A DNA stretch of 64,000 nucleotides from an uncultured Actinomycetes bacterium (GCA_963704885.1 CAVPIB010000001.1:320001-384000), one strand, 5' to 3'. Counted from the stretch's first letter, positions 12,656 to 59,108 are shown. Notes: generated from the letters alone by a model not told the origin. Program-made: numbers and translations.

Positions 12656-12684
12656 CGGAGAAGGCTACCTGCGACACTCCGCGC

Positions 12685-13452: not shown

Positions 13453-13493
13453 ACCGGGAACGGCTGTCTGGGGCCGCGCGTATACTCGCCCGC

Positions 13494-13768
13494 GTGACCG
13501 TGCTAGGCGGGGAGGTAGCGGTTCCCTGTACCCGAGATCCGCTTTCGCGGGGCTGAATCCCCGCCCGAGGCCCGGATGGTCCGGGGCAGCTCTGGGCACG
13601 GAGCGTTGATGGTTCGGGTCCTGCGCGACGCCAACCTGCGAACCCGGTCAGATCCGGAAGGAAGCAGCCGTAAGCGGGCGCTGGCGGGTGCCGTAGGGGT
13701 GCCTGGCCGGAGCTACCGGCCCGGGAAGCGCTCGAGTCGTCCGTGGTCGACGGCGGGTGCACGGTCAC
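13494..13768 (+). ncRNA. ffs: Signal recognition particle RNA, large (Alu-domain, Bacillus-type) form
   Basis: Terminal pairing GTGACCGTGC/GCACGGTCAC, 5' Alu-like GGCGGGGAGGTAGCGGTTCCCTGTACCCG, helix-8 core CCGGTCAGATCCGGAAGGAAGCAGCCG; TATACT -10 at 13481-13486; directly upstream of dnaX. Confidence 0.9.
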
Positions 13769-13786
13769 ATCACTTGTAGGAGCGAC

Positions 13787-15529: not shown

Positions 15530-15532
15530 CGA

Positions 15533-16129
15533 GTGGCCTACGAGGGTCCGATCCAGGAACTGATCGATCAGCTCGCTCGCCTGCCGGGGATCGGCCCCAA
15601 GTCCGCGCAGCGCCTGGCGTTCTGGCTGGTCAAGGCTCCGGCCGAGGACGCCAATCGTCTGGCCGCCGCGATAGTCCAGGCCAAGGAACGGATCTTCTTC
15701 TGCCGCGAATGCGGGAACGTGGCCGAGGGGGATCTCTGCCGCGTCTGCCGTGACGAGTCGCGCGATCGCACAATGCTTTGCGTTGTCGAGGAGCCGAAGG
15801 ACGCCGCAACCATCGAGAAGGCCGCGCTGATCAAGGGCCGCTACCACATCCTGGGCGGCGCGATCAGCCCGCTCGACGGGATCGGCCCCGAGGATCTTCG
15901 TGTGCAAGAGCTCCTTGATCGCGTCGAGCGCGACCACGTCACCGAGGTGATCCTTGCGACGAACCCTAACCTCGAGGGCAACGCGACCGCGATGTACGTG
16001 GCAGCGCTGCTGAAGCCGTCGGGGATCCGGGTCACCCGCTTGGCGAGCGGTCTGCCGGTGGGAGGGGACCTTGAGTACGCCGATGAGGTGACGCTCTCGC
16101 AAGCCCTCGAGGGCCGCCGCGAGATGTGA
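15533..16129 (+). CDS. recR: Recombination mediator RecR
   Basis: [11 protein letters not shown] HhH, C4 zinc finger, Toprim [17 protein letters not shown]. Confidence 0.97.
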
Positions 16130-16130
16130 C

Positions 16131-16697
16131 ATGGCTCGGCCCGACACCCGCCAGGTCGCCGATCGCGCGTTGATCCTCTACTCGCTCGTCCGTCGCGGTT
16201 ACATCGAGCACGTGATCGGCGGCAGCGACGGTGACCCGTTTCGGATACGACAGGGCGAGGCGGCGCGGGAGGAGACCGACCTATGGCTCGACCGCGAACA
16301 GCTCCGCGATGCCCTCGCCGACACGGAGCTGAACCTCTTAGCAGCGCCCTCGGGCTCGTGGCCGGCCGAGGCGACCGCCGACGCCCTGTGGCGCAAGGAG
16401 GCGCTCGGCACGCTGCTCTGGGCGCTTCAGCACTTGGCCGACATGCCCGACTACGGCGTCGAGTTCGAGCAGCAGGCGCTGGACGACGCGATCACGCGAT
16501 ACGGATCGGTCTCGGCGTTCCGCGAAGAGGGACTGCTCCGGGACGAACACGAGTTGGAGCGCGCGTGGATGGAGGCTGATGCCTGGTACGGGGCGACCGA
16601 GGGCCGCGGGGGCGACGACTCCTCGATCGCGTCGATCGCCGCCGAGCGCTACCGTGCGTTCAGTTGGCTGCGCGACGCCGACGCACGGCCAGCGTGA
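16131..16697 (+). CDS. Hypothetical protein, DUF4272-like
   Basis: WRKEALGTLLWAL and ERYRAFSWL resemble conserved DUF4272 blocks; starts 1 nt after recR. Confidence 0.6.
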   Translation: MARPDTRQVADRALILYSLVRRGYIEHVIGGSDGDPFRIRQGEAAREETDLWLDREQLRDALADTELNLLAAPSGSWPAEATADALWRKEALGTLLWALQHLADMPDYGVEFEQQALDDAITRYGSVSAFREEGLLRDEHELERAWMEADAWYGATEGRGGDDSSIASIAAERYRAFSWLRDADARPA

Positions 16698-18398: not shown

Positions 18399-20498
18399 AT
18401 GACCGACGATCAGTTCCCGGACGACTCGTTCCCGCGGCAGCAAGCGCGAACGCGGCGCTACACGCTGGGGCGGCCCCGCACGTTCCAGGTCGCGGATGAC
18501 GGCTCGCGCGTGGTGTTCCTTCGCTCGCGCTCGGGACACGATCCGGTCGGGAGCCTCTGGGTCTTCGACGTTGCGTCGAGAACGGAGCGCTTGATCTTCG
18601 ATCCATCGGGCGCGGGGGATGAGGACAACCTCTCGGCCGAGGAGCGCGACCGGCGTGAGCGACGCCGGGAGTCCCTCACGGGCGTGACGGACCACTCGGC
18701 AGACCGATCGCTCTCGAGCGCGGCATTCGCGATGGACGGGGCGTTGTTCGTGGCCGACCTGATCGGGGGCGGGGCGAAGAGGATCGACGTCGGAGTGCCC
18801 GACCCGTTCGACCCGCGCCCCGATCCGCACGGCCGGAGGATCGCCTATGTGGCGGGGGGCTCCCTCCGCGTGGTCCAGGCCGATGGATCGAACGATCGCG
18901 AGCTGGCGGCGGACCCGGATCCGGACGTCCACTGGGGGTTGGCAGAGTTCATCGCGGCCGAGGAGATGGAGCGCCAACGCGGCTACTGGTGGGCCCCAGA
19001 CGGCGAGCGGCTCGCCGCTTCCCGGGTGGACGAGCGACCCGTTCGGGTATGGCACATCGCTTCCCCAGTGGATCCAGAAGCGCCGCCACGAGCCGTGCGT
19101 TACCCGAGGGCGGGAACCGACAACGCGATCGTCACGCTCGCGGTGGTGTCGATGGACGGCGACAAGGTCGACGTCGAGTGGGAGCGCGAGGCTTTCCCAT
19201 ATCTGGTGACGGTCGATTGGGGAACCAACGGCCCACTCACACTGCTCGTGGAGTCGCGCGACCAGCGAACGACTCAGATCCTGCGGGTCGATCCCGACAC
19301 AGGAGTGACGGAGCTCCTTCGTGAGAACCATGACGAACGTTGGCTCGACATCACGATAGGTGTTCCGGCGTGGTTGGCGGACGGGCGGCTCGTGAGCACG
19401 GTGGACGCCGACGACACCAAGCGGCTGGCGTTCGACGACCAACTCGTCACTCCGCTGAGTCTCCAGGTCGCCCAGGTGCTCGACGTCGGTGAAGACGTGG
19501 TCTTCCGAGCCAACGAGGACCCGACCGAGACGCATGTCTGGCGGCTCGACGCCGAGGGGGAGCTCACCCGCCTCACACACGAACCCGGCGTGCACACCGC
19601 CGCCGTCGGCGGGAACGTCATCGTGGTCACGTCCGCGACGATGGAGGGCCTGCCCACCGCCACCATCCTCGTCGACGGCGAGGACGTCGCTACTATCGAC
19701 TCCACCGCCGAGACGCCGATCCTCCAGACGGCCCCAACGTTCTTCGTCGGCGGAGAACGTGACCTCCGGATGGCACTCTTCACACCCAGCGGAGCCGAAC
19801 CCGACGGTCCGCTCCCGGTGCTCCTCGATCCCTACGGCGGACCGCACTTCGGCATGGTCCAGAAGTCGCTGACGCTCCAGCTCGAGTCGCAGTGGTTCGC
19901 GGATCAGGGTTTCGCGGTCCTGGTGATCGACGGCCGAGGCACGCCCGGACGGGGTCCGGGCTGGGACCGTGAGGTCTATCGCAACCTGGCGGATCCGGTG
20001 CTCGAGGACCAGGTGGACGGACTGCACGCTGCCGCCGAGCGCTACGACTTCCTCGACCTGGGTCGGGTGGCGATCCGCGGATGGTCGTTCGGCGGCTTCC
20101 TGGCGGCGATGGCCCTCTTGCGGCGTCCGGACGTGTTCCACGCCGCGGTCAGCGGCGCCCCGGTCACGGACGGCACCCTCTACGACACGCATTACACGGA
20201 GCGGTACCTGGGGATGCCGGACCAGGAGGTCGAGGCATACGCTCGATATCGGCTGTTGGACGACGCGCCCAACCTGTCACGGCCCCTGATGCTGATCCAC
20301 GGCCTGGCCGACGACAACGTGTACGTGGCCAACACGCTACAGTTGTCGAAGCGGCTGATGGAGGCCGGACGGCCACATACCGTGCTGCCCTTGTCGGGTA
20401 TCACGCACGCACCGATGGATCCACAGGTGGCGGAGAACCTGCTGGTACTCCAGGTGCGGTTCATCCGCGACGCGCTCGGACTTCCCGACCCGGCCTGA
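18399..20498 (+). CDS. S9 family peptidase (dipeptidyl peptidase IV-like)
   Basis: AAEEMER, YGGP, GWSFGG nucleophile motif, HGLADDNV and a C-terminal His. Confidence 0.92.
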   Translation: MTDDQFPDDSFPRQQARTRRYTLGRPRTFQVADDGSRVVFLRSRSGHDPVGSLWVFDVASRTERLIFDPSGAGDEDNLSAEERDRRERRRESLTGVTDHSADRSLSSAAFAMDGALFVADLIGGGAKRIDVGVPDPFDPRPDPHGRRIAYVAGGSLRVVQADGSNDRELAADPDPDVHWGLAEFIAAEEMERQRGYWWAPDGERLAASRVDERPVRVWHIASPVDPEAPPRAVRYPRAGTDNAIVTLAVVSMDGDKVDVEWEREAFPYLVTVDWGTNGPLTLLVESRDQRTTQILRVDPDTGVTELLRENHDERWLDITIGVPAWLADGRLVSTVDADDTKRLAFDDQLVTPLSLQVAQVLDVGEDVVFRANEDPTETHVWRLDAEGELTRLTHEPGVHTAAVGGNVIVVTSATMEGLPTATILVDGEDVATIDSTAETPILQTAPTFFVGGERDLRMALFTPSGAEPDGPLPVLLDPYGGPHFGMVQKSLTLQLESQWFADQGFAVLVIDGRGTPGRGPGWDREVYRNLADPVLEDQVDGLHAAAERYDFLDLGRVAIRGWSFGGFLAAMALLRRPDVFHAAVSGAPVTDGTLYDTHYTERYLGMPDQEVEAYARYRLLDDAPNLSRPLMLIHGLADDNVYVANTLQLSKRLMEAGRPHTVLPLSGITHAPMDPQVAENLLVLQVRFIRDALGLPDPA

Positions 20499-20542
20499 GG
20501 GCACTGCTACGCTCAGGGTTCGCGAACGAAAGCCCTCTTCGC

Positions 20543-21787
20543 ATGCCCATCATCGTCCAGAAGTACGGCGGGACCTCGGTCGGTTCGACCGAGCGGATCC
20601 GGGCCGTCGCCGATCGCGTGGTTCGTGCCAAGGAGGAGGGATTCGACGTTCTGGTCGCGGTCTCGGCCATGGGTGACACGACCGACGAGCTGCTCGCCAT
20701 GGCCCGGCAGATCGCTCCCATCCCCGAGCCTCGTGAACTCGACATGTTGCTCACGGCGGGCGAAAGGATCGCGATGTCGCTCCTGGCGATCGCGATCAAT
20801 GCCCGAGGATGCAAGGCCGCGTCGTACACGGGCTCGCAGGCTGGCATCATCACCGACACGCAGCACGGCGCCGCGCGGATCGTCGAGATCCGTCCGAAAC
20901 GGATCCTGGAGTCGCTCAGGGAGGGCAACGTCGTGATCGTGGCCGGGTTCCAGGGCCTGTCAACGAACTACGACATCACCACGCTCGGCCGCGGGGGCAC
21001 CGACACCACCGCTGTCGCCATGGCGGCGGCGCTCGGCGCCGAGATCTGCGAGATCTACACCGACGTCGACGGCGTGTTCACCGCTGATCCCAGGATCGAG
21101 CCGCAGGCCCGCAAGATAGACGTGATCTCGTACGAGGAGATGCTGGAGCTCGCCGCATCGGGCGCCAAGGTCCTGCACGCGCGATCGGTGGAGTACGCTC
21201 GGCGACACGGCGTGAGGATCCACGTGCGCTCGTCGTTCCAAGACTTCGCCGGCACGTGGGTGCAGGAGGTGGACGAGCAGCAGATGGAGAACGTCTTGAT
21301 CTCGGGCGTCGCTCTCGACGACGGCGAGGCGAAGGTCACACTCGACCGCGTTCCCGACAAGCCGGGGGTGGCGGCCACCGTCTTCAAGGCGATCGCGAGC
21401 GAAGGCATCAGCGTGGACATGATCGTGCAGAACGTCTCTCACGAAGGCGCTACGGACCTGTCGTTCACGGCGCCACTCGCCGACGTCCCCCGACTGGAGT
21501 CCGTGATGGATCGCGTGGTCAAGGAGGTCGGCGCCACTACCTACTCGATCGACGGAGACATCTCGAAGGTCTCGTTGGTGGGCGCCGGCATGAAGGCTCA
21601 CCCGGGTGTTGCCGCGGACCTGTTCGATGCCCTGGCCGCCGACGGCATCAACATCGAGATGATCTCGACCTCGCCGATCAGGATCTCCTGCGTGATCCGC
21701 AAGGCGGACGCCGAGCGCGCGGTGCGCTCCATCCATGCGCGGTTCGAACTGGATCAAGACGGAGCGAACGCGGCCGATCGGCTGTGA
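20543..21787 (+). CDS. lysC: Aspartate kinase
   Basis: VQKYGGTSV, SAMGDTTD, TTLGRGG, YTDVDG..ADPR and two ACT domains. Confidence 0.96.
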   Translation: MPIIVQKYGGTSVGSTERIRAVADRVVRAKEEGFDVLVAVSAMGDTTDELLAMARQIAPIPEPRELDMLLTAGERIAMSLLAIAINARGCKAASYTGSQAGIITDTQHGAARIVEIRPKRILESLREGNVVIVAGFQGLSTNYDITTLGRGGTDTTAVAMAAALGAEICEIYTDVDGVFTADPRIEPQARKIDVISYEEMLELAASGAKVLHARSVEYARRHGVRIHVRSSFQDFAGTWVQEVDEQQMENVLISGVALDDGEAKVTLDRVPDKPGVAATVFKAIASEGISVDMIVQNVSHEGATDLSFTAPLADVPRLESVMDRVVKEVGATTYSIDGDISKVSLVGAGMKAHPGVAADLFDALAADGINIEMISTSPIRISCVIRKADAERAVRSIHARFELDQDGANAADRL

Positions 21788-21862
21788 ACCTCCCGCGACC
21801 CGTGGCGGTCCGCCTGGCTTCCTCCTGGAGCCGTATGCCTCGCCCGGTACGATGACACGATC

Positions 21863-22888
21863 ATGAAGGTCGCGGTCGTCGGAGCCACCGGTGCCGTCGG
21901 CCGGGAGATGACTCGCATCCTTCAGGAGCGTTCATTCCCCGTCGACGAGTTCATCCCGCTTGCCTCCTCACGCTCGGCGGGACTCACGGTGGAGTTCAAC
22001 GGCACGGAGCACATGGTGCGCGAGCTGTCGTTGGACGCGCTCCGTGGAGCGGATGTCGCGCTCATATCGGCGGGCGCAACGGTGTCGAGGTCGTTCATCC
22101 CCCAGGCGGCCGCTGCCGGAACCACTTGCATCGACAACTCCAGCGCCTTCCGGATGGAGGCCGACGTCCCGCTCGCGATCCCGGAGGTGAACCCCGGGTC
22201 GCTCGAAGGACATCCCAAGATCGTGGCCGTACCGAACTGCACCACCATCACCGCGATGCTTGCGGTCGGGCCGTTGCACAGAGCGGCCGGCCTGCGCTCG
22301 CTCGTGATGTCGTCTTACCAATCGGTGTCGGGTGCCGGGTGGAAGGGCACCAGGGAGCTGATCGAGCAGATCGCCAAGCTCCACGGTCAGGAGGAGGAGC
22401 TCGGCCGGCCCGACGCCCATACTCTTCCCGCCGGCGACGTGTTCGGCAAGACGATCGCGTACAACGTGGTGGCCAAGATCGGTGAGTTCGCCGACGGCGG
22501 GTATACAGGTGAGGAGCTCAAGATCATCGCCGAGCCGAAGAAGATCCTGGATCTGCCGGATCTGGACGTCGTGGCGACGGCCGTCCGCGTGCCCGTGCCC
22601 GTGGGGCACTCGGTCAGCATGGTCGCGACCTTCGATGGCCCGATCTCGCCCGAGGAGGCGCGCGAGGTGCTGGATACGGCGCCGGGCGTCGAGGTCCGTG
22701 ACGATCCCGCGAACGACGTCTACCCCAGTCCACTCGAATCGGCCGGGCTCGATGTGGCGCTAGTGGGCCGGATCCGCCAGGTCCCCGGCAAGCCAGACGC
22801 GTTGGTGCTCTTCAGCTGCGCGGACAACCTCCGGATAGGCGCCGCCCTGGATGCGGTCCACATCGCCGAGCATCTCTTCACCCGTTAG
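21863..22888 (+). CDS. asd: Aspartate-semialdehyde dehydrogenase
   Basis: VGATGAVG, IDNSSAFR, PNCTT, YQSVSGAG, VRVPV..GHS and DNLRIGAA. Confidence 0.96.
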   Translation: MKVAVVGATGAVGREMTRILQERSFPVDEFIPLASSRSAGLTVEFNGTEHMVRELSLDALRGADVALISAGATVSRSFIPQAAAAGTTCIDNSSAFRMEADVPLAIPEVNPGSLEGHPKIVAVPNCTTITAMLAVGPLHRAAGLRSLVMSSYQSVSGAGWKGTRELIEQIAKLHGQEEELGRPDAHTLPAGDVFGKTIAYNVVAKIGEFADGGYTGEELKIIAEPKKILDLPDLDVVATAVRVPVPVGHSVSMVATFDGPISPEEAREVLDTAPGVEVRDDPANDVYPSPLESAGLDVALVGRIRQVPGKPDALVLFSCADNLRIGAALDAVHIAEHLFTR

Positions 22889-23739: not shown

Positions 23740-25053
23740 TCAGGCGACCGGTGCGGTGTTCGCCCGTGCGTTAGCCTTGGCCCGCTTGTTGATGTACATG
23801 CGCTCGTCGGCAGTGGCCATGAGCTGGTCCAGCGAACATGGTTGCTCCGGGTCGAACAGGGCCACGCCGGTCGAGAACGACAACACGAACGGCCGCCCCT
23901 CCTGCGCATTCGCTAGCTGGACGGCCTCATGCAGTCGCGCCACCGAAGCCTCGGCCGAGGCTTCGGTCTCTGTCGCGAACAGGACACAGAACTCGTCGCC
24001 TCCTACGCGAGCGATCAGATCGGAGGCACGGAACGTCTGGCGCATCACGTAGGCGGCCTCGGCGATCATGCCGTCCCCTGCAGAGTGCCCCAACGTGTCG
24101 TTCACGTGCTTCAGTCCGTCCAGATCGAGGAACAACAGCGCCGCGGGCATGTGGGTCCGCTTGGCCATCTCAAGGTGGTGCTCGGCGGTCGGCAGGAAGC
24201 CTCTACGGTTCGTCAGACGGGTCAGGGCGTCGGTCGTGCCCATCCTGCGGAGTTCCTCCTGCAACTCGATGACCCTCGAGCCGCTGCGGACGAGGACCTG
24301 ATCCAGTCGGCCGAGCTCATCGTCGGATCTGCTCGGCTGGCCGAGGGGCATCCCTTCCTCGAGCATGCGCGCCATGTCCTCCGTCCGTCGAATCCTGGTC
24401 ACCAGGCGATGTATGAACAGCAGGACCACGAGCATGGAGGCGAGCAGACCGAGCGGGATCCCAACCATCCCGACGAGGAAGGAGACCCGCTGGCTGGCGT
24501 CGAGGCGATCCTTCCTTTCGGCGAGTAGTCGCACGGCCTGCGATCCCTCCCTGTCCACCAGCTCACGGATACGCTCCGTGGCCAACCGGCCCTCGGTCAA
24601 GAGCCGGTTCAGCCGCGTGTAGTCCGTCAGTTCGCTGATCGGCGCGAGGAGCTGGGTTCGTCGCATGATCGAGAGTCTGGTGTTAGTCATCGACTGCAGT
24701 GAGATCACATCGGTCAGGTCCACCGACGTGGTCTCGGTCAAGGCGCGGAGGTCGGCCACGTCTTCTATGAGCCGCGTGGAACCGTCGTAGTACGCCTCCA
24801 GGAACGCTTCGTCTCCGGTGAGGATGTAACCTCGGGTGCCCGTTTCGGCGCCGGTCAGATCGACCAGCACCCGATCGAACGCGCTCCGGAGCGCAACGGC
24901 CTGCCGTTCGGCCTCGATGGCCTCGGTCGCGCGATCGCGCGATGTCACCAGCGCGAACGTCGCCGCGACGAGCACGACGAAGGGGACCGCCATGATGGCG
25001 ATGATCTTGGTACGAAGCGTCAACGGGTCCTCCTCGTTGCCCTCCTCAGGCAT
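23740..25053 (-). CDS. Membrane diguanylate cyclase with CHASE3 sensor domain
   Basis: Two TM segments, AETGTRGYILTGDEAFLEAY (CHASE3), DALTRLTNRR, DLDGLKHVND.LGH..GD and GGDEF. Confidence 0.9.
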   Translation of the reverse strand: MPEEGNEEDPLTLRTKIIAIMAVPFVVLVAATFALVTSRDRATEAIEAERQAVALRSAFDRVLVDLTGAETGTRGYILTGDEAFLEAYYDGSTRLIEDVADLRALTETTSVDLTDVISLQSMTNTRLSIMRRTQLLAPISELTDYTRLNRLLTEGRLATERIRELVDREGSQAVRLLAERKDRLDASQRVSFLVGMVGIPLGLLASMLVVLLFIHRLVTRIRRTEDMARMLEEGMPLGQPSRSDDELGRLDQVLVRSGSRVIELQEELRRMGTTDALTRLTNRRGFLPTAEHHLEMAKRTHMPAALLFLDLDGLKHVNDTLGHSAGDGMIAEAAYVMRQTFRASDLIARVGGDEFCVLFATETEASAEASVARLHEAVQLANAQEGRPFVLSFSTGVALFDPEQPCSLDQLMATADERMYINKRAKANARANTAPVA

Positions 25054-25089: not shown

Positions 25090-25118
25090 TTGTCTACCAA
25101 GTGGTAGAGGGTCATAAT
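25090..25118 (+). promoter_or_regulatory. Sigma70-type promoter (TTGTCT-17-CATAAT) with palindromic operator TCTACCA-AG-TGGTAGA
   Basis: -35 at 25090-25095, -10 at 25113-25118, GTG start 7 nt downstream; perfect 7-bp inverted repeat at 25093-25108. Confidence 0.7.
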
Positions 25119-25125
25119 CTGCCGC

Positions 25126-27417
25126 GTGGTAGACAACGCCGAGAGCGGCGCGGGCTCGTTCATCGGGCGTCTCTCGGGGAAGCGGATCTTCCTCACGGGC
25201 GTCACCGGTTTCCTGGGGCAGGTCGTCTTCGAGCGACTGCTGGCCGACGTGCCGGATGCCCAGATCCTGCTGCTGGTTCGCTCCCAGACCGGCTCGTCGT
25301 CCAGGGATCGCGTGGAGTACCTGTTCCGCAAGCCCGCGTTCGACGGTCTGCGCGAAAGGGTGGGGCAGCCAGGGCTGGTGGCGCTGCTGGACGACCGTGT
25401 GGAGGTCGTCGACGGGGACTTCTCGCTAGGCGTGCCCTCGTTACCCGGAGACATCGACGTCGTGATCCATTCCGCGGCCGCGGTCTCGTTCGACCCGCCG
25501 ATCGACGAGGGCTTCCAGACGAACCTATTCGGCGCCATGAACCTGTATCGCGGCGTCGCCCAGAGCGGGTCGCGCCCGTCCCTGGTGCATATCTCGACCG
25601 CTTACGTGGCAGGGGTTGCGAAGGGTGTCGTGCCTGAGGACACGCTGGACCACCGGGTGGATTGGCGGACCGAGGGCGATCTGGCGCTGGAGGCGCGGCG
25701 CGACGTGGAAGCTCAATCGCGCAGGCCCGAGATGCTCGACGACTTCATGGCCAAGGCCACGAAGGAGCACTCGCGGGCCGGTCCCATGACGGTGGCCGAG
25801 GACGCCGAGCAGCGTCGGAAGGACTGGGTCTCCAAGCGCCTCACGCGGTACGGCCGCGCACGCGCGCGTTCGCTCGGCTGGCCTGACGTATACACGTTCA
25901 CGAAGGCGATGGGCGAGCGCGCCGTCGAAGAGCTGGCGTTCGAGGAGGAGCTGCCGCTCTCGATCGTTCGACCTTCGATCATCGAGAGCTCGCTCCTGCA
26001 CCCGTCGCCGGGGTGGATCGATGGTTTCAAGATGGCCGATCCGATCATCCGCGCATACGGCCTGGGCCAGATCCCGGAGTTCCCGGGGATCCCCGAGGGC
26101 ATCGTGGACATCATCCCCGTGGACATGGTGGTGAACGCGATCCTGGCGGTCGCCGCCACGCCGCCCGAGCCCCGCCATCCGGCCTACTACCATGTGAGCT
26201 CCGGGTCACGGAACCCGTTGCGCTTCCACGAGCTGTATCGATACGTACGTGAGTACTTCGAGGCGCATCCGCTTCCAGCACGTGGTCGCGGCGAGCACAA
26301 GGTGCCGGAGTGGTCCTTCCCGGGGAACCTGAGCGTTGAGCGCATGATCAGGCGAGCCGAGAAGCTGACCGATATCGCCGAGCAGGTCGTCACGCACCTG
26401 CCCAAGTCGAAGAAGATGCGCGAGCTCGTCTCGCGGGTGGATCGCGACAAGGCCCGGGTCGATTTCGTGAAGCGCTATTCCGACCTCTACGGCGCCTACA
26501 CGGAAGCCGAGGTCATCTACACCGACGACCGCATGCTCCAGTTGTTCGAGTCTCTCGGGGCTGACGAACGGGCCCGTTTCCCGTTCGATTCGGCCATGAT
26601 CGACTGGAAGTACTACCTGCAGGACGTGCACTCACCGGCGGTGACCCAGAGCCTCCGCGAGCTCTCGAAGCGTGATCGGGACAAGCCGGTGGTGAAGATC
26701 CGAGAACGAGAGCAGCCGGTGGTCGCGCTGTTCGACATGGAGGGCACCATCATCACCTCGAACGTCGTGGAGTCCTACGTGTGGACGCGGATGGCCGACC
26801 TATCACCCGACGAATGGCCCCGGGAGCTGGTGAGCGTGTTCGGCCGGATCCCCGGATACCTGCAGGTGGATCGGCGGGACCGGGGCGACTTCCTTCGGAC
26901 GTTCTTCCGCAGGTACGAGGGCGCCTCCGTGGATGGCGTGCAGAGGTTGATCGACAGCCACGTCGGCGAGTTCATGTTGCAGAAGGCGAGCGCGGCGGCG
27001 ATAAGGCGGATCCGCGAGCACCGGGCTGCAGGGCACCGAACCATCCTGATCACAGCTGCCGCGGAGATCTTCGTGCGGCCGCTGGCGCCGCTGTTCGACA
27101 TCGTGATCGGGTGTGAGCTGGAGGAGCGTGACGGCCGTTACACGGGATTCATGTCGTCGCCGCCACTCGTGGGCGAGGCGCGCGCCGCCTGGCTCCGGCG
27201 GTATGCGCTGCAGGAGGAGATCGACCTCAAGCACTCGTACGCCTACGCGGACTCTTACTCCGACCTGCCGCTCCTTCGGGCGGTCGGCAATCCCGTCGCC
27301 GTCTCTCCCGATTCCGCGCTGTACCGTTACGCGCGTCGCCGCCGTTGGCCGATCGAACCCTGGGCCATGTCGAAGGGCATGCCACGGGTTCGCTTCCCAA
27401 AGCCGGCGTTCCGATGA
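25126..27417 (+). CDS. Fatty acyl-CoA reductase (male-sterility/NAD_binding_4 SDR) fused to a C-terminal HAD-IB hydrolase
   Basis: TGVTGFLG, HSAAAVSFD, HISTAYV, YTFTK, VRPSII..PSPGW and DIIPVD (FAR); FDMEGT and YAYADSYSD..L..VG (HAD). Confidence 0.88.
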   Translation: MVDNAESGAGSFIGRLSGKRIFLTGVTGFLGQVVFERLLADVPDAQILLLVRSQTGSSSRDRVEYLFRKPAFDGLRERVGQPGLVALLDDRVEVVDGDFSLGVPSLPGDIDVVIHSAAAVSFDPPIDEGFQTNLFGAMNLYRGVAQSGSRPSLVHISTAYVAGVAKGVVPEDTLDHRVDWRTEGDLALEARRDVEAQSRRPEMLDDFMAKATKEHSRAGPMTVAEDAEQRRKDWVSKRLTRYGRARARSLGWPDVYTFTKAMGERAVEELAFEEELPLSIVRPSIIESSLLHPSPGWIDGFKMADPIIRAYGLGQIPEFPGIPEGIVDIIPVDMVVNAILAVAATPPEPRHPAYYHVSSGSRNPLRFHELYRYVREYFEAHPLPARGRGEHKVPEWSFPGNLSVERMIRRAEKLTDIAEQVVTHLPKSKKMRELVSRVDRDKARVDFVKRYSDLYGAYTEAEVIYTDDRMLQLFESLGADERARFPFDSAMIDWKYYLQDVHSPAVTQSLRELSKRDRDKPVVKIREREQPVVALFDMEGTIITSNVVESYVWTRMADLSPDEWPRELVSVFGRIPGYLQVDRRDRGDFLRTFFRRYEGASVDGVQRLIDSHVGEFMLQKASAAAIRRIREHRAAGHRTILITAAAEIFVRPLAPLFDIVIGCELEERDGRYTGFMSSPPLVGEARAAWLRRYALQEEIDLKHSYAYADSYSDLPLLRAVGNPVAVSPDSALYRYARRRRWPIEPWAMSKGMPRVRFPKPAFR

Positions 27418-27431
27418 GGGTGGTGCGCTGA

Positions 27432-28637
27432 ATGGCCCTGTCGCTCGAGCTCTTCCGGTCGGCGCCGCGCTACCTGGCCGCGCGTGCCGTCGGAGGCAGA
27501 GCGCCCGGTCTGGTGGCGGGCCCTCTGGCCCCGCTCCGGTTGGCGAGTCCTACGGACCCGGAGCCGCGCGGCCAGGGATGGACGCGCGTGAAGCCGCTCC
27601 TCTCGGGGATCTGTGGGAGCGACCTGGCCACGCTTGGAGGCAAGTCGTCCTTCTACTTCTCACCCCTCGTGTCTCTGCCGTTCGTCCCAGGTCACGAGGT
27701 CGTGGGCGAGGTGCTGGACGACGTCGACGGCCTCTCGGCGGGAGACCGGGTGGTCATGGCGAGCGTATTGACGTGCGCCACACGCGGCCTGGAGCCTTGC
27801 GGGAACTGCCGGGTCGGCCTGTTCAACCGTTGCGACTCGGTCGCGACCGGCGATCTCAAGGCGGGATTGCAGACCGGCTATTGCGCCGACACGGGGGGCG
27901 GTTGGAGCCGCATGATGCTCGCGCATCGCTCGCAGCTGCACGCGGTGCCGACGGCGATGGAGGACAAGGTCGCAGTGTTGATCGAGCCTTTCGCGTGCGC
28001 GATCCATGCGGCCATGCGGGCTAACGTGCCCGATGGGGGTTCGGTGTTCGTGGTGGGCGCGGGAACCGTGGGGCTTCTGACGTTGCTGGCCGTGAAGCTG
28101 CTGACTCGTGCCGATCATGTGATCGTTGCCGCGAAGCACACGCGTCAGCGCGCGGCGGCTCGCTTGGCCGGTGCCGACGTCGTGGTCGTTCCGGATCACG
28201 CCGTGAAGGCGGTTCGGCGTTCGGAGCACGCCATGAAGCTCACACCTGAGCGAGGGATGGACTTCCTGCTGGGAGGCGTCGACGTGGCGATCGAGTCCAC
28301 GGGCTCCAAGAGCGCTCTGGACCTGGCGCTGCGCACGACGCGGGCGGGGGGGCGCGTGGTGCTTTCCGGGATCCCTGGGCCCGGCGCCGACCTGACGCCT
28401 GTCTGGTTCCGCGAGCTGGAGCTGGCGGGCGCCTACACCAGCGGCATCGAACGCGTGGGCGACACGGACAGGAACGCTTTCGACATGGCGATCGAGCTGG
28501 CGAGCGGGCTGCCCATGCTCGCCGACATGGTCGGCGCAACTTATCCACTCGACCGGTGGCGTGAGGCGATAGACCACGCGTTGGGAGCCGGACGGCTCGG
28601 CACGTTCAAGGTGGCTTTCGCGCCACAAGAGACCTGA
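27432..28637 (+). CDS. Zinc-binding alcohol dehydrogenase (MDR family)
   Basis: GICGSD, GHEVVG, structural-Zn Cys cluster (C..C..C..C), EPFACA and GAGTVG. Confidence 0.9.
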   Translation: MALSLELFRSAPRYLAARAVGGRAPGLVAGPLAPLRLASPTDPEPRGQGWTRVKPLLSGICGSDLATLGGKSSFYFSPLVSLPFVPGHEVVGEVLDDVDGLSAGDRVVMASVLTCATRGLEPCGNCRVGLFNRCDSVATGDLKAGLQTGYCADTGGGWSRMMLAHRSQLHAVPTAMEDKVAVLIEPFACAIHAAMRANVPDGGSVFVVGAGTVGLLTLLAVKLLTRADHVIVAAKHTRQRAAARLAGADVVVVPDHAVKAVRRSEHAMKLTPERGMDFLLGGVDVAIESTGSKSALDLALRTTRAGGRVVLSGIPGPGADLTPVWFRELELAGAYTSGIERVGDTDRNAFDMAIELASGLPMLADMVGATYPLDRWREAIDHALGAGRLGTFKVAFAPQET

Positions 28638-28663
28638 AAGCAAGCCTGACAGGAGACCGACAG

Positions 28664-30250
28664 ATGCCCAGACCAGGATTCGTCCTCGAAGTCGACGAAC
28701 GGACCCCGCCGCTCTTGGTCCACCAAGGCGAGGGCTTCCGGATGCAGCGGTTCCCGCTCGGTTCGCGCGTCGTGTATCCACCCGACTCGCTGCCGGGAGT
28801 GAAGGACGTGAACGGGGCCATCCGCCACTCGCTCCTGAACCCGCTCGGCGCGGAGCCTCTGACGGAGTTGCTCAAGCCCGGCATGAAGCTGACCATCGCG
28901 ATCGACGACATATCGCTGCCGCTGCCGCCGATGAAGACCCCCGACATCCGGCAGCGGATCATCGAGCACGTGATCGAGCTGGCAGCGCGCAGGGGCGTGG
29001 AGGACGTGAAGCTGATCGTGGCCAACGCCCTGCACCGCCGGATGACCTCGAGCGAGATCAAACGGATGGTCGGCGAGCGGGTGTTCCGTTCGTTCTGGCC
29101 CAACGACCTGGCGAACTTCGACGCGGAAGATCGCGACCAGCTGACGGAGATCGGCGTCACCGATCAGAACGAGGTGGTCGAGATCTCCAAGCGTGCGGCG
29201 GAGTCCGACCTGATCGTGTACGTCAACATCAACCTGGTGGCCATGGACGGTGGGCACAAGTCGGTGGCGGTGGGGCTGGCCAGCTACAAGAGCCTGAAGC
29301 ATCACCACAACGTCGAGACGATGATGCATTCCCAGTCGTACATGGATCCTCGGCCGGGGCACAGCGCGATCAACGACTCGGCCACCAGGATGGGGCAGCT
29401 CCTGGCGGCGAGCGGCGTGAAGATCTTCCAGATCGAGACCACGGTCAACAACGACACGTTCCCGTCCAACCTGAGCTTCCTGAACAAGCGCGAGTGGGAA
29501 TGGTCCACCTACGACCAGGTGCTGATGATGGGGGCCAAGAAGGCCAACGACGTCGCGCCGCCGCGGGTCCGCCGCGAGTTCTACCGGCGGATCGAGGCCC
29601 CATACAAGCTGACCGGGATCAACGCGGGTGAGGTGGAAGCGGTCCACGAGCGGACGCTTGCGAACCTCCATCGCCAACAGTTGGTTGAGGTCCAGGGACA
29701 GTCCGACATCTTGGTGTTCGGGTTGCCCTACGTCTGCCCGTACAACGTGAACTCGATCATGAACCCGATCCTGGTCCACTGCCTGGGGCTCGGGTACCTG
29801 TTCAACATGTACCGGAACAAGCCCCTCGTGAGGCAGGGCGGCGTGGTGATCCTGTTCCACCCCGTCCCGTGGGAGTTCCACCAGATCCATCACCCGTCCT
29901 ACATAGACTTCTTCGAAGAAGTGCTCCGTGAGACCACGGACCCGGCAACCTTGGAGTCGAAGTACGAAGAGCGCTATGCCGCCGATCCGTGGTACGCGCA
30001 CCTATACCGGACCAGTCACGCCTATCACGGTGTTCACCCGTTCTACATGTGGTACTGGGGAGCGCACGGTCGCGACCACGCGGGCGATGTGATCTTCGTC
30101 GGCGGCGACCCCAAGTCGGTGGCGCGTCTGGGTTACCGAACCGCGGGAACGTTCCGTGATGCCTTGGAGATGGCGAAGGACACCGTCGGCTCCGCTCCGT
30201 CGATCACGTACATGCACACTCCGCCGCTATCGATCGCGGACGTGCGGTGA
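28664..30250 (+). CDS. LarA (lactate racemase)/DUF2088 family protein
   Basis: IRHSLLNPLGAEPL, TIAIDDISLP, ANALHRRM and GGHKS match the LarA N-terminal fold motifs. Confidence 0.8.
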   Translation: MPRPGFVLEVDERTPPLLVHQGEGFRMQRFPLGSRVVYPPDSLPGVKDVNGAIRHSLLNPLGAEPLTELLKPGMKLTIAIDDISLPLPPMKTPDIRQRIIEHVIELAARRGVEDVKLIVANALHRRMTSSEIKRMVGERVFRSFWPNDLANFDAEDRDQLTEIGVTDQNEVVEISKRAAESDLIVYVNINLVAMDGGHKSVAVGLASYKSLKHHHNVETMMHSQSYMDPRPGHSAINDSATRMGQLLAASGVKIFQIETTVNNDTFPSNLSFLNKREWEWSTYDQVLMMGAKKANDVAPPRVRREFYRRIEAPYKLTGINAGEVEAVHERTLANLHRQQLVEVQGQSDILVFGLPYVCPYNVNSIMNPILVHCLGLGYLFNMYRNKPLVRQGGVVILFHPVPWEFHQIHHPSYIDFFEEVLRETTDPATLESKYEERYAADPWYAHLYRTSHAYHGVHPFYMWYWGAHGRDHAGDVIFVGGDPKSVARLGYRTAGTFRDALEMAKDTVGSAPSITYMHTPPLSIADVR

Positions 30251-30260
30251 GGGGGCACGC

Positions 30261-31172
30261 GTGAGCGGCGTCCGCGAAGAGCTGAAGGAGATGGCGCGAG
30301 GGTTCCGTTGGGGCCGGCGTCCGCTCATCCCTCGCTCGGCCGAGCCGTACGCGGTGGAGCCAGACGATGCCGGGGTTCCTACCGATTGGGCCCGCTCCGA
30401 GCTGGGAACAGCTGCGCGCCAGGCCATCCTGAAGGGCTTGATGCATCCCCTGCTCCGTAACGAGCTGTCGCTCCGGGTGCACGGTCTGGACAACCTGGAG
30501 GGCGTTGAGGCGCCGGTCATCTTCTTCTCGAACCATTCGAGCCACCTGGACGCCACGCTGATCTTGACCACGCTCCCCGATGCGTGGCAGTCCAAGACCG
30601 CCGTGGGCGCAGCGCGCGACTACTTCTTCGATGTGTGGTGGCGCCAGGCGTTCACGGCGCTCGTGTACGGCGCTTTCCCGATCGACCGTTCGCGCGGAGG
30701 GCGCGGTGCCGTGGATAAGGCGCGCGAGTTGATAGATGACGGCTGGAGCATCGTCGTGTTCCCGGAGGGAACCAGATCGCAGGACGGACACATGCAGCGA
30801 TTCCGGCACGGCGCATCTCGATTGTGCCTGGAACACGGCATCGGGGCGGTGCCGATCGCGATCCGCGGCGCTCATCAGGCCATGCCGAAGGGCCGGTTCT
30901 GGCCGATGGCCGGGCGTCCCACGGTGACCGTGCGTTACGGCCGAGCGCTGTTCCCCGAGGAAGGCGAGACGCATCAAGATCTCTCGCGTCGGATGACCCA
31001 AGCCGTGTCGCAGCTCTTCGACGAGGACAAGACCACGTGGTGGGAGTCGCTGCACCGGGCGGAGCGCGAAGAGACGCCCTCGCTCGCTGGACCCCTCGGT
31101 CCTGACTGGCGGAAGCGATGGGAGGGCTCCCGTCCGCTCGGCACCCGAGGCGATCCTCGGACCTGGGACTGA
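30261..31172 (+). CDS. Lysophospholipid/glycerolipid acyltransferase (PlsC family)
   Basis: NHSSHLD (HxxxxD), FPIDR and FPEGTRS motifs. Confidence 0.92.
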   Translation: MSGVREELKEMARGFRWGRRPLIPRSAEPYAVEPDDAGVPTDWARSELGTAARQAILKGLMHPLLRNELSLRVHGLDNLEGVEAPVIFFSNHSSHLDATLILTTLPDAWQSKTAVGAARDYFFDVWWRQAFTALVYGAFPIDRSRGGRGAVDKARELIDDGWSIVVFPEGTRSQDGHMQRFRHGASRLCLEHGIGAVPIAIRGAHQAMPKGRFWPMAGRPTVTVRYGRALFPEEGETHQDLSRRMTQAVSQLFDEDKTTWWESLHRAEREETPSLAGPLGPDWRKRWEGSRPLGTRGDPRTWD

Positions 31173-31177
31173 CCGAG

Positions 31178-31792
31178 GTGACACGCACCGGGGGTGAGAA
31201 GCGGAAGTCCACGCTGGTCGAGGAGGCGATCCGTCAGTTCGGCCGCGAGGGCTACAACGGCGCCAGCTTGGATCAGATCGCGACCGCGGTCGGGGTGCGC
31301 AAGCAGACACTCCTGTACTACTTCGCGACGAAAGAGATCCTGCTCGAGGCCTGTCTGACGGCGGCCGGCGAACGGCTGGCGCTGGAGATCTCGCAGGCGC
31401 TGGAGGGCAAGGAGACCTATTGGGATCGCGCCGAGGCTGTGATCCACGCGGTGTTCGCCCTGGCGGAGGAGTGGCCCGAGTTCCCCATGTTCGTCCGCGA
31501 GGCGGGGCGGCTGGGTCCAGAGGCGTTCGAGCGGTTCGCGGGGGTCATCGAGCCGCTCCGGCACCGTGCTATCGACTTCCTGCAGACCGGCATGGACAAC
31601 GGCGACATCCGCAAGCAGGACCCCGCCATGCTGCTCTTCACCCTCTATACAGGTGTGGTCGGCTCCCTCACCGAGGCGAGCGTGCTGAACGTCGTGGTCG
31701 GCGCGGACAAAGGGAGAGCTTCGTTGAAGCGCCGTGAGCGAGAAGTGATCGCGTTCGTGCGAGCTGCGCTGATGCCCGTGGCAGAGAGCTAG
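31178..31792 (+). CDS. TetR/AcrR family transcriptional regulator
   Basis: FGREGYNGASLDQIATAVGVRKQTLLYYFATKE HTH. Confidence 0.92.
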   Translation: MTRTGGEKRKSTLVEEAIRQFGREGYNGASLDQIATAVGVRKQTLLYYFATKEILLEACLTAAGERLALEISQALEGKETYWDRAEAVIHAVFALAEEWPEFPMFVREAGRLGPEAFERFAGVIEPLRHRAIDFLQTGMDNGDIRKQDPAMLLFTLYTGVVGSLTEASVLNVVVGADKGRASLKRREREVIAFVRAALMPVAES

Positions 31793-58464: not shown

Positions 58465-58746
58465 CCATCGAGCCTACCCGTGAGAGGGCGATCGAGTAGG
58501 GCCCCGACGTAGCCTCGACCTGTCCCAACGAGCCGAGGTCGCCACGAACAAAAGGTGTACTAGCGAATCAGACACCTGGGGACTCACAACCTCCAGCGAG
58601 TAGTGCGAACGAGGCCCGTAACACCTTCCCGAACGGCCCGTGCAGCCGAAACCTCCCTCTCCTTCGGTCGTCCACCCTCACTCTTTGCCAGATCGGACTT
58701 GACCGACCCCAGCTCGCACGTGCACCCGCCAAGCCTCCCTCGATAG

Positions 58747-58970
58747 CACGGGGTCGAGGAGCGCTTCTATCGCTCGCTCAAGTACGAACATCTCTGCCGC
58801 GAGAAATCGCCGACGCGATCGAGCTCGAGACCGCGGTTCGCAGCTACGGCGAGTCCAAATAGCGGGTGCGTCACCATGAATCGATAGGGCAGGTCACGCC
58901 GATCAGTGCCGACGTTGCTGCGTCCAACCTATCCGAGGCATGAAGTGTCCAAGGAACTTGACGCGGAACG
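58747..58970 (+). mobile_element. Degenerate IS3-family element remnant (integrase-core C-terminus plus right inverted repeat)
   Basis: Reads HGVEERFYRSLKYEHL.., then after a frameshift IADAIELETAVRSY..* RVRHHESIGQVTP, like the IS3 ERFxxSLK.E...YN..RPH..LG..TP end; followed by GTGTCCAAGGAACTTGACGCGGAAC, resembling an IS3 terminal repeat. Confidence 0.65.
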
Positions 58971-59108
58971 CCCCCACGGGCGGTTCCGTCATTGTCGCGG
59001 AGGGAGCGGGACCCGAACCAGGCATCTGGGCCTCCCTGGAGGTGGAGTACCCGTTCCGTCGAACCGAGCTGACCGAACATTGCCCGTGCTTGGTGGAGTG
59101 AGGCTCGG

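Follow-up and report, generated by a model that had tools for sequence, protein, structure and literature searches.

A TetR-linked operon of an uncultured Actinomycetes bacterium as a probable rearranged elb cassette with a LarA-family protein

In M. xanthus, the genes elbA-E correspond to MXAN_1531 to MXAN_1527 (PMC13012113) and elbD is MXAN_1528 (PMC11980068), which places elbC at MXAN_1529. Excerpts of a review (PMC9131029) describe ElbB as HAD-like, ElbD as a FAR-ACS-ACP-AGPAT protein and ElbA and ElbE as SDRs, and they assign to ElbD a route to ether lipids that is independent of AGPS. In the same excerpts, insertions are reported for elbA, elbB, elbD and elbE only, and ElbC is termed 'a protein of unknown function'. 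MXAN_1529 is listed under LarAH group 15 in the xlsx supplement of Desguin 2020 (PMC7583248). This bears out a suggestion, made in an earlier reading of the DNA studied here from the sequence alone (the sequence-only reading), that the elb cluster holds a DUF2088/LarA-like gene.

LarAH groups 14, 15 and 16 share a gene neighbourhood (COG0204, COG0560, COG1063, COG3320) that is tabulated in Table S1 of Desguin 2020 with the function given as 'unknown' (PMC7583248). In group 14, COG0204, COG0560 and COG1063 occur in 7/8 members and COG3320 in 4/8, and the group signature lacks His174 and carries Ile at the position of Arg75. The purified group 14 protein of Frankia sp. (Franean1_4168) showed no activity in any of 7 racemase/epimerase assays (PMC7583248, Table 1), and the discussion of that paper proposes another hydride-mediated reaction for such LarAH groups. 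A second point of comparison is provided by LarA_Sp and LarA_Bw (9q2u, 9q3k, 9q3j; bioRxiv 10.1101/2025.08.19.671153), which are single-histidine octameric LarAHs of group 17 encoded next to glycolysis and triose-phosphate genes.

Here we describe a five-gene operon in a window of 64,000 nucleotides from an uncultured Actinomycetes bacterium (GCA_963704885.1, CAVPIB010000001.1:320001-384000), which encodes a LarA-like protein surrounded by lipid genes. Its features are as follows, in window coordinates.

25090..25118, + strand: promoter-like site TTGTCT-17 nt-CATAAT (sigma-70-like consensus match only)
25093..25108, no strand: perfect palindrome TCTACCA-AG-TGGTAGA between the promoter hexamers, candidate TetR operator
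25118..25133, no strand: second, imperfect candidate operator TCTGCCGCGTGGTAGA, overlapping the GTG start codon
25126..27417, + strand: FAR domain fused to a HAD-IB phosphatase-type domain (NAD_binding_4, HAD), 763 aa
27432..28637, + strand: Zn-dependent medium-chain dehydrogenase of the polyol/threonine dehydrogenase type (ADH_N 2e-15, ADH_zinc_N 6e-14), 401 aa
28664..30250, + strand: LarA homologue of the LarAH14/15/16 family, ElbC counterpart (Lar_N 1.5e-39, NF052592), 528 aa
30261..31172, + strand: PlsC/AGPAT-type acyltransferase (Acyltransferase PF01553, 1.6e-21)
31178..31792, + strand: TetR-family regulator (TetR_N 1.8e-11)

All five open reading frames lie on the + strand, separated by 14, 26, 10 and 5 nt, in agreement with the five co-oriented genes and gaps of 5-26 nt of the sequence-only reading. 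The two shortest gaps depend on starts inferred from the DNA, namely GTG 30261 for PlsC, which is preceded by GAGGGGG, and GTG 31178 for TetR; the longest frames of both genes open at 30156 and 31118 and would each run into the preceding gene. The single promoter proposed there was likewise recovered, as the only sigma-70-like match between 24900 and 32500, a consensus match that is weak by itself (shuffle mean 0.6). No terminator-like site was found on the + strand in the same interval.

The palindrome at the promoter has 5 matches in the window, a number reached in 0/100 shuffles. In a set of 77 loci that have a complete FAR-HAD gene and 250 nt or more upstream, it was present between -250 and +30, with at most 2 mismatches allowed, in 31/40 loci with a linked TetR homologue versus 1/37 without, and in none of 77 control stretches inside the FAR-HAD gene. 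The layout with two sites approximately 25 nt apart recurs at 11 loci. Of the 65 genome loci with room, 22 have a TetR homologue downstream; in 23 further loci it is divergent and upstream, and 15 of these carry this type of operator between the divergent genes. With the candidate operator at its promoter, the operon is predicted to be TetR-controlled. The regulator itself weakly resembles FasR (7.6e-9) and Bacillus FadR (6.6e-6), in both cases below threshold.

The FAR-HAD protein combines NAD_binding_4 (6e-50, residues 23-339) with HAD (2e-32, residues 534-718), and its HAD part scores 105.9 bits against the TIGR01490 HAD-IB cut-off of 98.3, whereas the Sterile domain stays under its cut-off (32.2 versus 35.4 bits). 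Its best solved relative is the alcohol-forming fatty acyl-CoA reductase 7eoz (E 1.8e-50, residues 13-508), and its translation contains TGVTGFLG and YTFTK. The best solved relatives of the Zn-ADH are secondary-alcohol polyol dehydrogenases, with L-idonate 5-DH at 6e-23 and, in addition, ketose reductase, sorbitol DH, threonine 3-DH, butanediol DH and galactitol-1-phosphate 5-DH. The acyltransferase displays the PlsC motifs NHSSHLD and FPEGTRS. AMP-binding and PP-binding domains are absent from all five operon proteins (Pfam).

In common with M. xanthus elb, the operon thus has a LarAH14/15-family protein, a HAD-IB-type protein, FAR and AGPAT-type domains and an NAD(P)-dependent dehydrogenase. 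The arrangement differs in several respects. FAR is fused to HAD in the window and to ACS-ACP-acyltransferase in elb; the acyltransferase has a gene of its own, ElbD's ACS and ACP domains have no counterpart, and the place of the SDRs ElbA and ElbE is taken by a polyol-type Zn-ADH. In addition, the window's operon carries its own TetR gene and candidate operator, and its host belongs to the Actinomycetota.

The sequence-only reading called for a comparison of gene neighbourhoods, including elbA-E, and this comparison supports it. Among the best 80 related genome loci, with counts limited to those with room, FAR-HAD lies upstream of the LarAH gene in 63/63, the ADH gene upstream in 69/70 (L074 lacks it) and PlsC downstream in 74/74, and the four-enzyme core is kept in the same order in 58 of the 59 loci that extend far enough in both directions. 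The operon arrangement is therefore not due to chance, and co-occurrence of the genes extends across Actinomycetota. The elb-type metagenome loci also carry homologues of these four modules. Of 16 metagenome loci with 5 kb or more to either side, 14 have FAR, HAD and PlsC homologues on the same strand. By Pfam and in order, L090 encodes HAD, LarAH, a 1545-aa FAR/AMP-binding/PP-binding/acyltransferase protein and an SDR; L110 an ElbD-like 1517-aa protein, HAD, Zn-ADH and LarAH; and L114 LarAH, a FAR-acyltransferase fusion and HAD. A Zn-ADH is found beside ElbD-like genes in L110, L146, L148 and L129. In a LarAH tree of 46 rows, the 14 elb-type rows form one side of a branch (SH-aLRT 100), and the ADH-bearing intermediate forms stand at the base of the actinobacterial clade. 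Because FAR, acyltransferase, HAD-IB and LarAH stay together across the elb-type, intermediate and actinobacterial fusion patterns of the metagenome loci, the operon is very probably a rearranged elb cassette, elbB-C-D(-E), without the acyl-CoA synthetase and ACP domains. The LarA-like protein is the family-level counterpart of ElbC. The sequence-only reading had called the pathway 'undescribed'; this does not apply to the neighbourhood, which Desguin 2020 had already tabulated, but it does hold for the function, and our literature search found no paper that links the LarAH14/15/16 neighbourhood to elb.

The window's genome encodes a single Lar_N protein, the LarA-like one, which matches NCBIfam NF052592 over model positions 1-520 of 520 (893.7 bits, cut-off 740). 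Among solved structures, the single-histidine LarAHs 9q2u (2e-36) and 9q3j (3e-32) come closest to it, and its residues were assigned by manual counting along the phmmer alignment to 9q2u. D82 stands at the position of Asp72 (ribose) of L. plantarum LarA, K199 at that of Lys184, the residue of the thioamide link, and H215 at that of the nickel ligand His200; in LarA_Sp the named counterparts are Asp73, Lys195 and His211, the last being the nickel ligand (bioRxiv 10.1101/2025.08.19.671153). Of the two catalytic histidines of LarA (His108 and His174), the first is kept as H124, while the second is replaced by N190, aligned with Asn185 of LarA_Sp, and the carboxylate/phosphate-binding Arg75 (Lys76 in LarA_Sp) by L85. 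The protein thus shares with LarA_Sp and LarA_Bw an Asn at the position of the second His and the cofactor residues Asp, His, Lys and His; its H458 and Y360 match the LarA_Sp ligand-site residues His401 and Tyr307; in contrast, Lys76 and His306 of these proteins correspond to L85 and P359. Since both the second histidine and the carboxylate-binding arginine are missing, a role as hydroxy-acid racemase is predicted to be unlikely. The window's protein has its LarAH group, its gene neighbourhood and the signature without His174 and Arg75 in common with the Frankia group 14 protein, although the latter was studied after purification and the window's protein is known from sequence.

As a whole, the locus is best explained as a TetR-repressed operon of an elb-type lipid pathway, a reading that we consider about evenly balanced. 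The FAR domain would produce a fatty aldehyde or alcohol by reduction, acting directly on acyl-CoA because ACS-ACP is absent, and the PlsC enzyme would acylate glycerol-3-phosphate or DHAP. The LarA-like enzyme, with its single catalytic His and a hydride-accepting cofactor, would act on the C2 hydroxyl or keto group of a glycerol-phosphate lipid intermediate, which would allow the exchange of the sn-1 acyl group for the fatty alcohol, the step of AGPS elsewhere. The polyol-type Zn-ADH would set the keto/hydroxyl state at C2 in the manner of alkyl-DHAP reductase, and the HAD-IB domain would remove the phosphate, giving 1-O-alkylglycerol-based lipids. TetR would bind TCTACC-N4-GGTAGA operators over the promoter and would probably be released by an acyl-CoA-type ligand.

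The chance that the product is an alkyl ether glycerolipid appears roughly equal to the chance that it is not. The AGPS route of animals and of M. xanthus (MXAN_1676-1674), consisting of FAR, GNPAT, AGPS and alkyl-DHAP reductase, shares with the proposed pathway the supply of fatty alcohol, the acylation of the backbone and the reduction of the C2 keto group, but the FAD-dependent AGPS is absent from the window and a LarA-family protein takes that position. The only FAD-oxidase_C protein of the genome, on contig C4, is GlcD-like (459 bits to GlcD, cut-off 567.9), so that no AGPS candidate was found in the genome. No WS/DGAT gene is present in the window either, the sole genome copy lying at C1:475230-476018, approximately 124 kb from the operon; the sequence-only reading was right on both absences. 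That the LarA-like protein makes the ether bond in place of AGPS is argued by elimination and is a tentative proposal, more doubtful than the ether product itself. Motif I of the HAD domain, FDMEGT, is of the DxE and not the DxD type, which counts against the ether-lipid explanation, as does the lack of ElbD-type ACS and ACP domains and of SDRs like ElbA and ElbE.

The strongest competing view, which we regard as rather unlikely, is an elb-like cassette whose product is not an ether lipid and whose LarA-like protein forms no ether bond. Such a cassette might yield a glycerolipid or monoacylglycerol by the acyl-DHAP route, a lipid derived from a fatty aldehyde, or one whose C2 configuration is altered. 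In that case, the LarA-like protein would serve as an isomerase of a phosphorylated polyol intermediate or as a subunit independent of the nickel cofactor. This view gains from the distribution of the cofactor genes. The window's genome has larB, larC and larE, all above cut-offs, but this is not specific evidence because LarC is common in genomes without Lar_N: in the phylum sample it occurs in 67 of 73 LarAH-positive genomes, yet also in 146 of 228 others, and four families have LarC in 25/26 genomes and Lar_N in 0/26. In five close relatives of the window's own family with LarAH above cut-off (92-98% complete, 2-40 contigs), LarC (PF01969) was found in 0/5, LarB in 0/5 and LarE above cut-off in 0/5, and the operon is intact with every cofactor residue kept. 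LarAH is under purifying selection in these five, with a dN/dS of 0.167 versus 0.170 in five LarC-positive relatives (pairs not independent; dS 0.6-0.7). An intact operon without detectable larBCE calls a dependence on the nickel cofactor into question.

Degenerate family members point in the same direction, since of 66 full-length rows 42 are without one or more of the residues H124, K199 and H215; the 24 intact rows all keep D82, K199 and H215, for K199 and H215 partly by construction, because these residues define the set. Furthermore, HAD and LarAH are the tightest-linked pair and occur in L115 without an adjoining ElbD-like gene, and ether lipids were not detected in Pontiella, where elbD homologues are present (PMC11868695). 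On the other hand, the sole genetics on such a cassette, in the excerpts of PMC9131029, ties it to ether lipids, every other module has a conventional role that leaves the ether step over, and the window's LarA-like protein keeps all cofactor-site residues.

An operon for fatty alcohols, wax esters or other storage lipids, in which the PlsC-type enzyme esterifies FAR-made alcohols and ADH, LarA-like protein and HAD are accessory, is improbable. The kinship of the FAR domain to 7eoz, the one WS/DGAT gene of the genome and the weak likeness of TetR to fatty-acid regulators would fit such an operon, but the WS/DGAT gene is distant, and the near-universal linkage of HAD-IB and LarAH to FAR and PlsC has no role in wax synthesis. 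To our knowledge, PlsC-type enzymes acylate glycerol-phosphate backbones and not free alcohols, which also counts against it. Of the 'ether-lipid or wax-ester' pathway suggested by the sequence-only reading, the wax-ester half thus offers no explanation for the LarAH, HAD and ADH genes, whereas the match of four modules to elb-type loci speaks for the other half. A nickel-pincer 2-hydroxy-acid racemase or epimerase, acting for example on 2-hydroxy fatty acids that feed the reductase, is very improbable, because the family name 'NPN-dependent hydroxyacid isomerase' in NCBIfam, the kept cofactor residues and larBCE in the genome are set against the Asn and Leu replacements, the inactive Frankia protein and the other hydride-mediated reaction proposed for such groups.

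With the elb-type ether-lipid pathway as the preferred reading, the LarA-like protein would provide a testable candidate for the ether-forming step, ElbC being the sole elb gene without an assigned role.

The genes for FAR-HAD, Zn-ADH, the LarA-like protein, PlsC and TetR form a compact operon in the source genome (3.0 Mb, 20 contigs, 97% complete), in which the window covers positions 320001-384000 of contig C1. The features of the region are as follows.

25090-25118: the one promoter-like site in the operon region
25093-25108: perfect palindrome TCTACCA-AG-TGGTAGA, between the promoter hexamers
25118-25133: imperfect copy of the palindrome, over the start codon
25126-31792, + strand: five ORFs, all in the same orientation
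First gene, + strand: FAR-HAD, with NAD_binding_4 (6e-50, residues 23-339) and HAD (2e-32, residues 534-718)
Start ATG 27432, + strand: Zn-ADH, with ADH_N and ADH_zinc_N
Start ATG 28664, + strand, preceded by AGGAG: LarA-like protein, with the LarA-family domain Lar_N (1.5e-39)
Start GTG 30261, + strand, preceded by GAGGGGG: PlsC, with Acyltransferase (1.6e-21)
Start GTG 31178, + strand: TetR, with TetR_N (1.8e-11)

The two GTG starts were chosen from the gene junctions; the longest ORFs would run into the preceding gene. With the chosen starts, the intergenic gaps are 14, 26, 10 and 5 nt. FAR-HAD exceeds the cut-off of the HAD-IB family TIGR01490 (105.9 versus 98.3 bits), while its Sterile domain remains below threshold (32.2 versus 35.4 bits). 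No terminator-like site was found on the + strand of the operon region, which is flanked by a divergent CHASE3-GGDEF gene upstream and by the convergent rpsD downstream. The CHASE3-GGDEF diguanylate cyclase gene shares its intergenic region with the operon; upstream there are also asd and an aspartate kinase ORF, which as the longest ORF carries an N-terminal extension of 154 residues (these genes together fall in 20081-22888 and 23740-25053). The GC content of the window is high (0.62-0.71 in 2-kb windows); two segments are unlike the rest, 58001-60000 with a GC content down to 0.62, and 62001-64000 with a GC skew up to +0.15 and an AT skew of -0.17.

The operon is real and widespread. When one genome per species was scanned, relatives of the LarA-like protein turned up in 599 of the 600 candidate stretches. 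We kept the 80 best loci, with 62-92% identity to the query, and searched them by tblastn with the window's own proteins (E<1e-10); as they were chosen by similarity, they represent the close family only. All carry Actinomycetota titles except a 2.7-kb contig of a metagenome-assembled genome labelled Velamenicoccus. Cultured carriers are among them, such as Micromonospora sp., Actinomadura sp., Actinoallomurus spadix KCTC 9252 and Streptomyces synnematoformans JCM 15481. Wherever the contig left room, FAR-HAD was found upstream of the LarA homologue (LarAH) in 63/63 loci, ADH upstream in 69/70 and PlsC downstream in 74/74, and the four enzyme genes occurred in order in 58 of the 59 loci with room on both sides. 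The ADH exception is a sponge-associated Acidimicrobiia genome (L074), in which ADH is missing and FAR-HAD abuts LarAH. At a separate locus (L175, G287:C4), the FAR-HAD and LarAH matches are broken into several HSPs, which points to frameshifts caused by assembly errors or by decay of the copy; this genome also lacks LarC. Across 301 evenly sampled genomes of the phylum, 73 gave a family-model score above the cut-off; this figure takes in G088, G226 and G148, which are unpublished.

A TetR homologue lies downstream of LarAH in 22 of the 65 loci with room. The palindrome (up to 2 mismatches, positions -250 to +30) was surveyed in the 77 loci where FAR-HAD is full length and the contig extends 250 nt or more upstream of it. 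It was present in 31/40 loci with a linked TetR homologue (16/17 with TetR downstream, 15/23 with TetR divergent upstream), in 1/37 loci without one and in 0/77 control stretches inside the gene. Because the palindrome tracks the linked TetR, this distribution marks TetR as the probable regulator of its own operon and the palindromes as putative operators.

The LarA-like protein matches NCBIfam NF052592 ('NPN-dependent hydroxyacid isomerase, LarAH14/15/16 family') with 893.7 bits (cut-off 740). For these LarAH groups, the function entry in Desguin 2020 is 'unknown', and the purified Frankia LarAH14 was inactive in 7/7 assays (PMC7583248). Table S1 of that study lists COG0204, COG0560 and COG1063 as neighbours in 7/8 members of group 14, with COG3320 in 4/8; COG0451, COG0560 and COG1022 for group 15; and COG0204 and COG0560 for group 16. 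Thus, the neighbourhood itself is already in print. Among solved structures, the single-histidine LarAHs 9q2u/9q3k (2e-36) and 9q3j (3e-32) come closest, with malate racemase (4e-14) and LarA (4e-9) far behind. Residue equivalences were counted by hand on an alignment to LarA_Sp (9q2u/9q3k), with residue names as used in its preprint (bioRxiv 10.1101/2025.08.19.671153).

Table. Active-site positions of LarA_Sp and of the window's LarA-like protein.
Role; LarA_Sp; window
Ribose contact; Asp73; D82
Catalytic His; His115; H124
Second catalytic His position of LarA; Asn185; N190
Cofactor thioamide link; Lys195; K199
Nickel ligand; His211; H215
Ligand site; Tyr307; Y360
Ligand site; His401; H458
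Cofactor phosphate / substrate carboxylate; Lys76 (LarA Arg75); L85, changed
Ligand site; His306; P359, changed

Because the alignment leaves a single catalytic base and no carboxylate anchor, the protein is unlikely to act as a 2-hydroxy-acid racemase. The authors of PMC7583248 and of the LarA_Sp preprint likewise regard racemisation as unlikely for these groups.

Many family members are degenerate: among 66 full-length rows, 42 are missing one or more of H124, K199 and H215. Many representatives, including P0125, P0129, P0131 (with a cluster member named Frankia sp. R82), P0135 and P0141, retain the actinobacterial N-terminus and have lost the cofactor lysine, the nickel histidine or the catalytic histidine. 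In this they resemble Desguin group 16, and they look like pseudo-enzyme paralogues; no such paralogue was found in the window's own genome. Nine long or odd LarAH representatives were checked for fused forms. In P0208, the C-terminal part of a LarAH is followed by an acyltransferase domain, which is either a fusion or a read-through gene call, indistinguishable with its cut 5' end. P0181 (947 aa, 35% identity) has a chlorophyll a/b-binding domain at its C-terminus, so that it must be a mis-join or else a gene model of algal type. The remaining representatives of the nine showed no further fused domains. Another representative, P0184, is named from a Lokiarchaeota metagenome-assembled genome, and the family therefore reaches beyond bacteria.

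The connection to ether lipids is provided by the elb genes of Myxococcus xanthus. elbA-E correspond to MXAN_1531 to MXAN_1527 (PMC13012113) and elbD to MXAN_1528 (PMC11980068); therefore, elbC is MXAN_1529, which the PMC7583248 dataset assigns to LarAH group 15 and which shares the D-x-H...K-H signature. PMC9131029 describes ElbB as HAD-like, ElbD as a FAR-ACS-ACP-AGPAT protein, ElbA and ElbE as NAD-dependent epimerase/dehydratase proteins and ElbC as 'a protein of unknown function'. The available part of the same paper reports insertions in elbA, elbB, elbD and elbE only, and states that ElbD-dependent ether-lipid synthesis is mostly independent of AGPS, the FAD-dependent alkyl-DHAP synthase (MXAN_1676).

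Among 1.84 billion representatives searched, 2586 proved related to the LarA-like protein with E values of 0.001 or lower. NF052592 was the best NCBIfam family for 50/50 full-length representatives scanned, and was above cut-off in 3. Eighty metagenome loci were fetched with an alignment headed by P0122, a representative that by eye has a group 15 N-terminus and motifs, and were classed by tblastn and Pfam; 41 short loci were unclassable. Fourteen loci have an elb-type arrangement (A) of HAD, LarAH, an ElbD-like multidomain protein and an SDR, as in L090, where the ElbD-like protein (1545 aa, frame 11653-16290) reads NAD_binding_4 / AMP-binding / PP-binding / Acyltransferase. The window's arrangement (B) was found in 21 metagenome loci. 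Three loci, such as L110, are intermediate (C), with an ElbD-like gene, HAD, Zn-ADH and LarAH, and a single case, L114, combines LarAH, a FAR-acyltransferase fusion and HAD (D). Sixteen loci extend 5 kb or more upstream and 5.5 kb or more downstream. In 14 of them, homologues of FAR, HAD and PlsC lie on the same strand; the other two are L115 (HAD, LarAH, MFS transporter) and L105 (LarAH alone). At L115, which has no ElbD-like gene, the transporter resembles acetyl-CoA transporters and directly follows LarAH (11742-13613). In elb-type metagenome loci, the SDR is followed by a DAG-kinase/YegS-like gene (L090, 17387-18784).

A quick, unrooted tree was calculated by maximum likelihood from 46 LarAH rows, with the window's protein added, unclassed rows dropped and every third type-B row from the loci kept (26/78). 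Type A occupies one side of a branch with an SH-aLRT of 100, and types C and D stand at the base of the type-B clade, itself supported at 98%. The classing of L040 as intermediate was rejected as an artefact, since it arose from the splitting of its FAR-HAD match into several HSPs. Together with this tree, arrangements A-D argue that the elb-type and actinobacterial cassettes are one evolving unit; the reshuffling of the same four activities among fusions is a classic sign of a common pathway. The window's operon is a variant of the elb cassette. In HAD motif I of its FAR-HAD (D-M-E-G-T, residues 535-539), Glu takes the position of the general acid/base Asp. Of 126 related loci, 72 have Glu here and 54 have Asp, with both states among fused forms, and DxE versus DxD was rejected as a mark of the fused form (fusions Glu 58/Asp 21, others Glu 14/Asp 33).

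Within such a pathway, the FAR domain (best solved relative 7eoz, 1.8e-50) would convert acyl-CoA to a fatty aldehyde or alcohol, PlsC (best solved relative 5kym) would acylate G3P or DHAP, and the HAD-IB domain would remove the phosphate. The Zn-ADH groups with polyol and threonine dehydrogenases; because these relatives act on secondary alcohols, the C2 keto/hydroxyl of a glycerol backbone is probably a better fit for it than a fatty aldehyde. The ether-forming step would then fall to the LarA-like protein by elimination. We speculate that, with its single base, it transiently oxidises C2 on a hydride-accepting cofactor and thereby activates C1 for the exchange of acyl for alkyl. The substrate would be a 1-acyl-glycerol-phosphate intermediate, whose C2 hydroxyl is oxidised on a pincer-type cofactor that gives the hydride back after the exchange. 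That the LarA-like protein, and with it ElbC, thereby supplies the ether-bond-forming activity still missing from AGPS-independent synthesis in bacteria is a tentative proposal, which we consider rather improbable. A CarF/PEDS1-type desaturase (PF10520) gave no match in the source genome, an uninformative result, as the control was silent in 14/14 genomes.

In the source genome, larC and larB are adjacent at C1:284928-286276, at a distance of about 63 kb from the operon, and contig C7 carries larE. All three score above cut-offs, and no Lar_N protein besides the LarA-like protein was found in this genome. These genes were dropped as support for cofactor use because they are non-specific, LarC being also common without Lar_N. 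Of the 301 sampled genomes, 213 have LarC and 138 have Lar_N, and four families (f7, f10, f17 and f30) together have LarC in 25/26 genomes and Lar_N in 0/26. The presence of LarC in several whole families without a LarA-family gene suggests that the nickel-pincer cofactor has further users in the phylum.

Conversely, LarC is absent from 6 of the 73 LarAH-positive genomes, all in the window's own family. Five of these were examined (G183, G222, G074, G116 and G014, loci L170-L174; 92-98% complete, 2-40 contigs); the first four belong to one genus. Neither LarC (PF01969, E up to 0.001) nor LarB was found in them, and LarE searches gave only NAD-synthetase-like matches of 43-44 bits. All five operon genes are nevertheless full length and free of stops, and LarAH retains D82, H124, N190, K199 and H215. 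By the NG86 method, its median pairwise dN/dS is 0.167 in this set versus 0.170 in five LarC-positive relatives, each group giving 10 pairs that are not independent, with dS at about 0.6-0.7; the neighbouring genes are also alike between the groups. Within one genus, G014 has LarAH without LarC, and G209 has LarC without LarAH. Because relatives without larBCE keep the operon, the nickel-cofactor mechanism is weakened. Either the LarA-like protein is independent of the known cofactor or it obtains the cofactor from elsewhere. In a bolder form of the proposal, the family would use some cofactor different from the nickel-pincer nucleotide known so far.

Within the literature searched, which excluded the primary elb paper (Lorenzen 2014), neither the link between ElbC and LarA nor the relation of the actinobacterial cassette to elb is in print. 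No paper was found that joins an elb or ether-lipid term to LarA or DUF2088, and a sponge ether-lipid preprint has no mention of LarA or lactate racemase. Nickel-pincer terms were absent from the papers listed in a further search; the one paper matching both nickel-pincer and ether lipid concerns Haloferax annotation. Lorenzen 2014 (Nat Chem Biol) may already note a DUF2088 annotation or elbC mutants.

For AGPS-independent alkyl ether lipids in aerobic bacteria, ElbD is needed and the ether-forming step is still without an enzyme (PMC9131029). LarAH groups 14 and 15 are orphan LarA homologues, and joining them to this problem yields a concrete, testable candidate. If the proposal is true, the LarA superfamily would for the first time have a reaction other than racemisation or epimerisation, and membrane-lipid synthesis would include a step that depends on nickel. 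If the larBCE-less relatives are functional, the cofactor chemistry of the superfamily would be broader than thought. Because the cassette scored above the family cut-off in 73 of the 301 phylum genomes, Actinomycetota, including sponge-associated Acidimicrobiia such as L074, could be unrecognised sources of non-isoprenoid ether-lipid environmental biomarkers.
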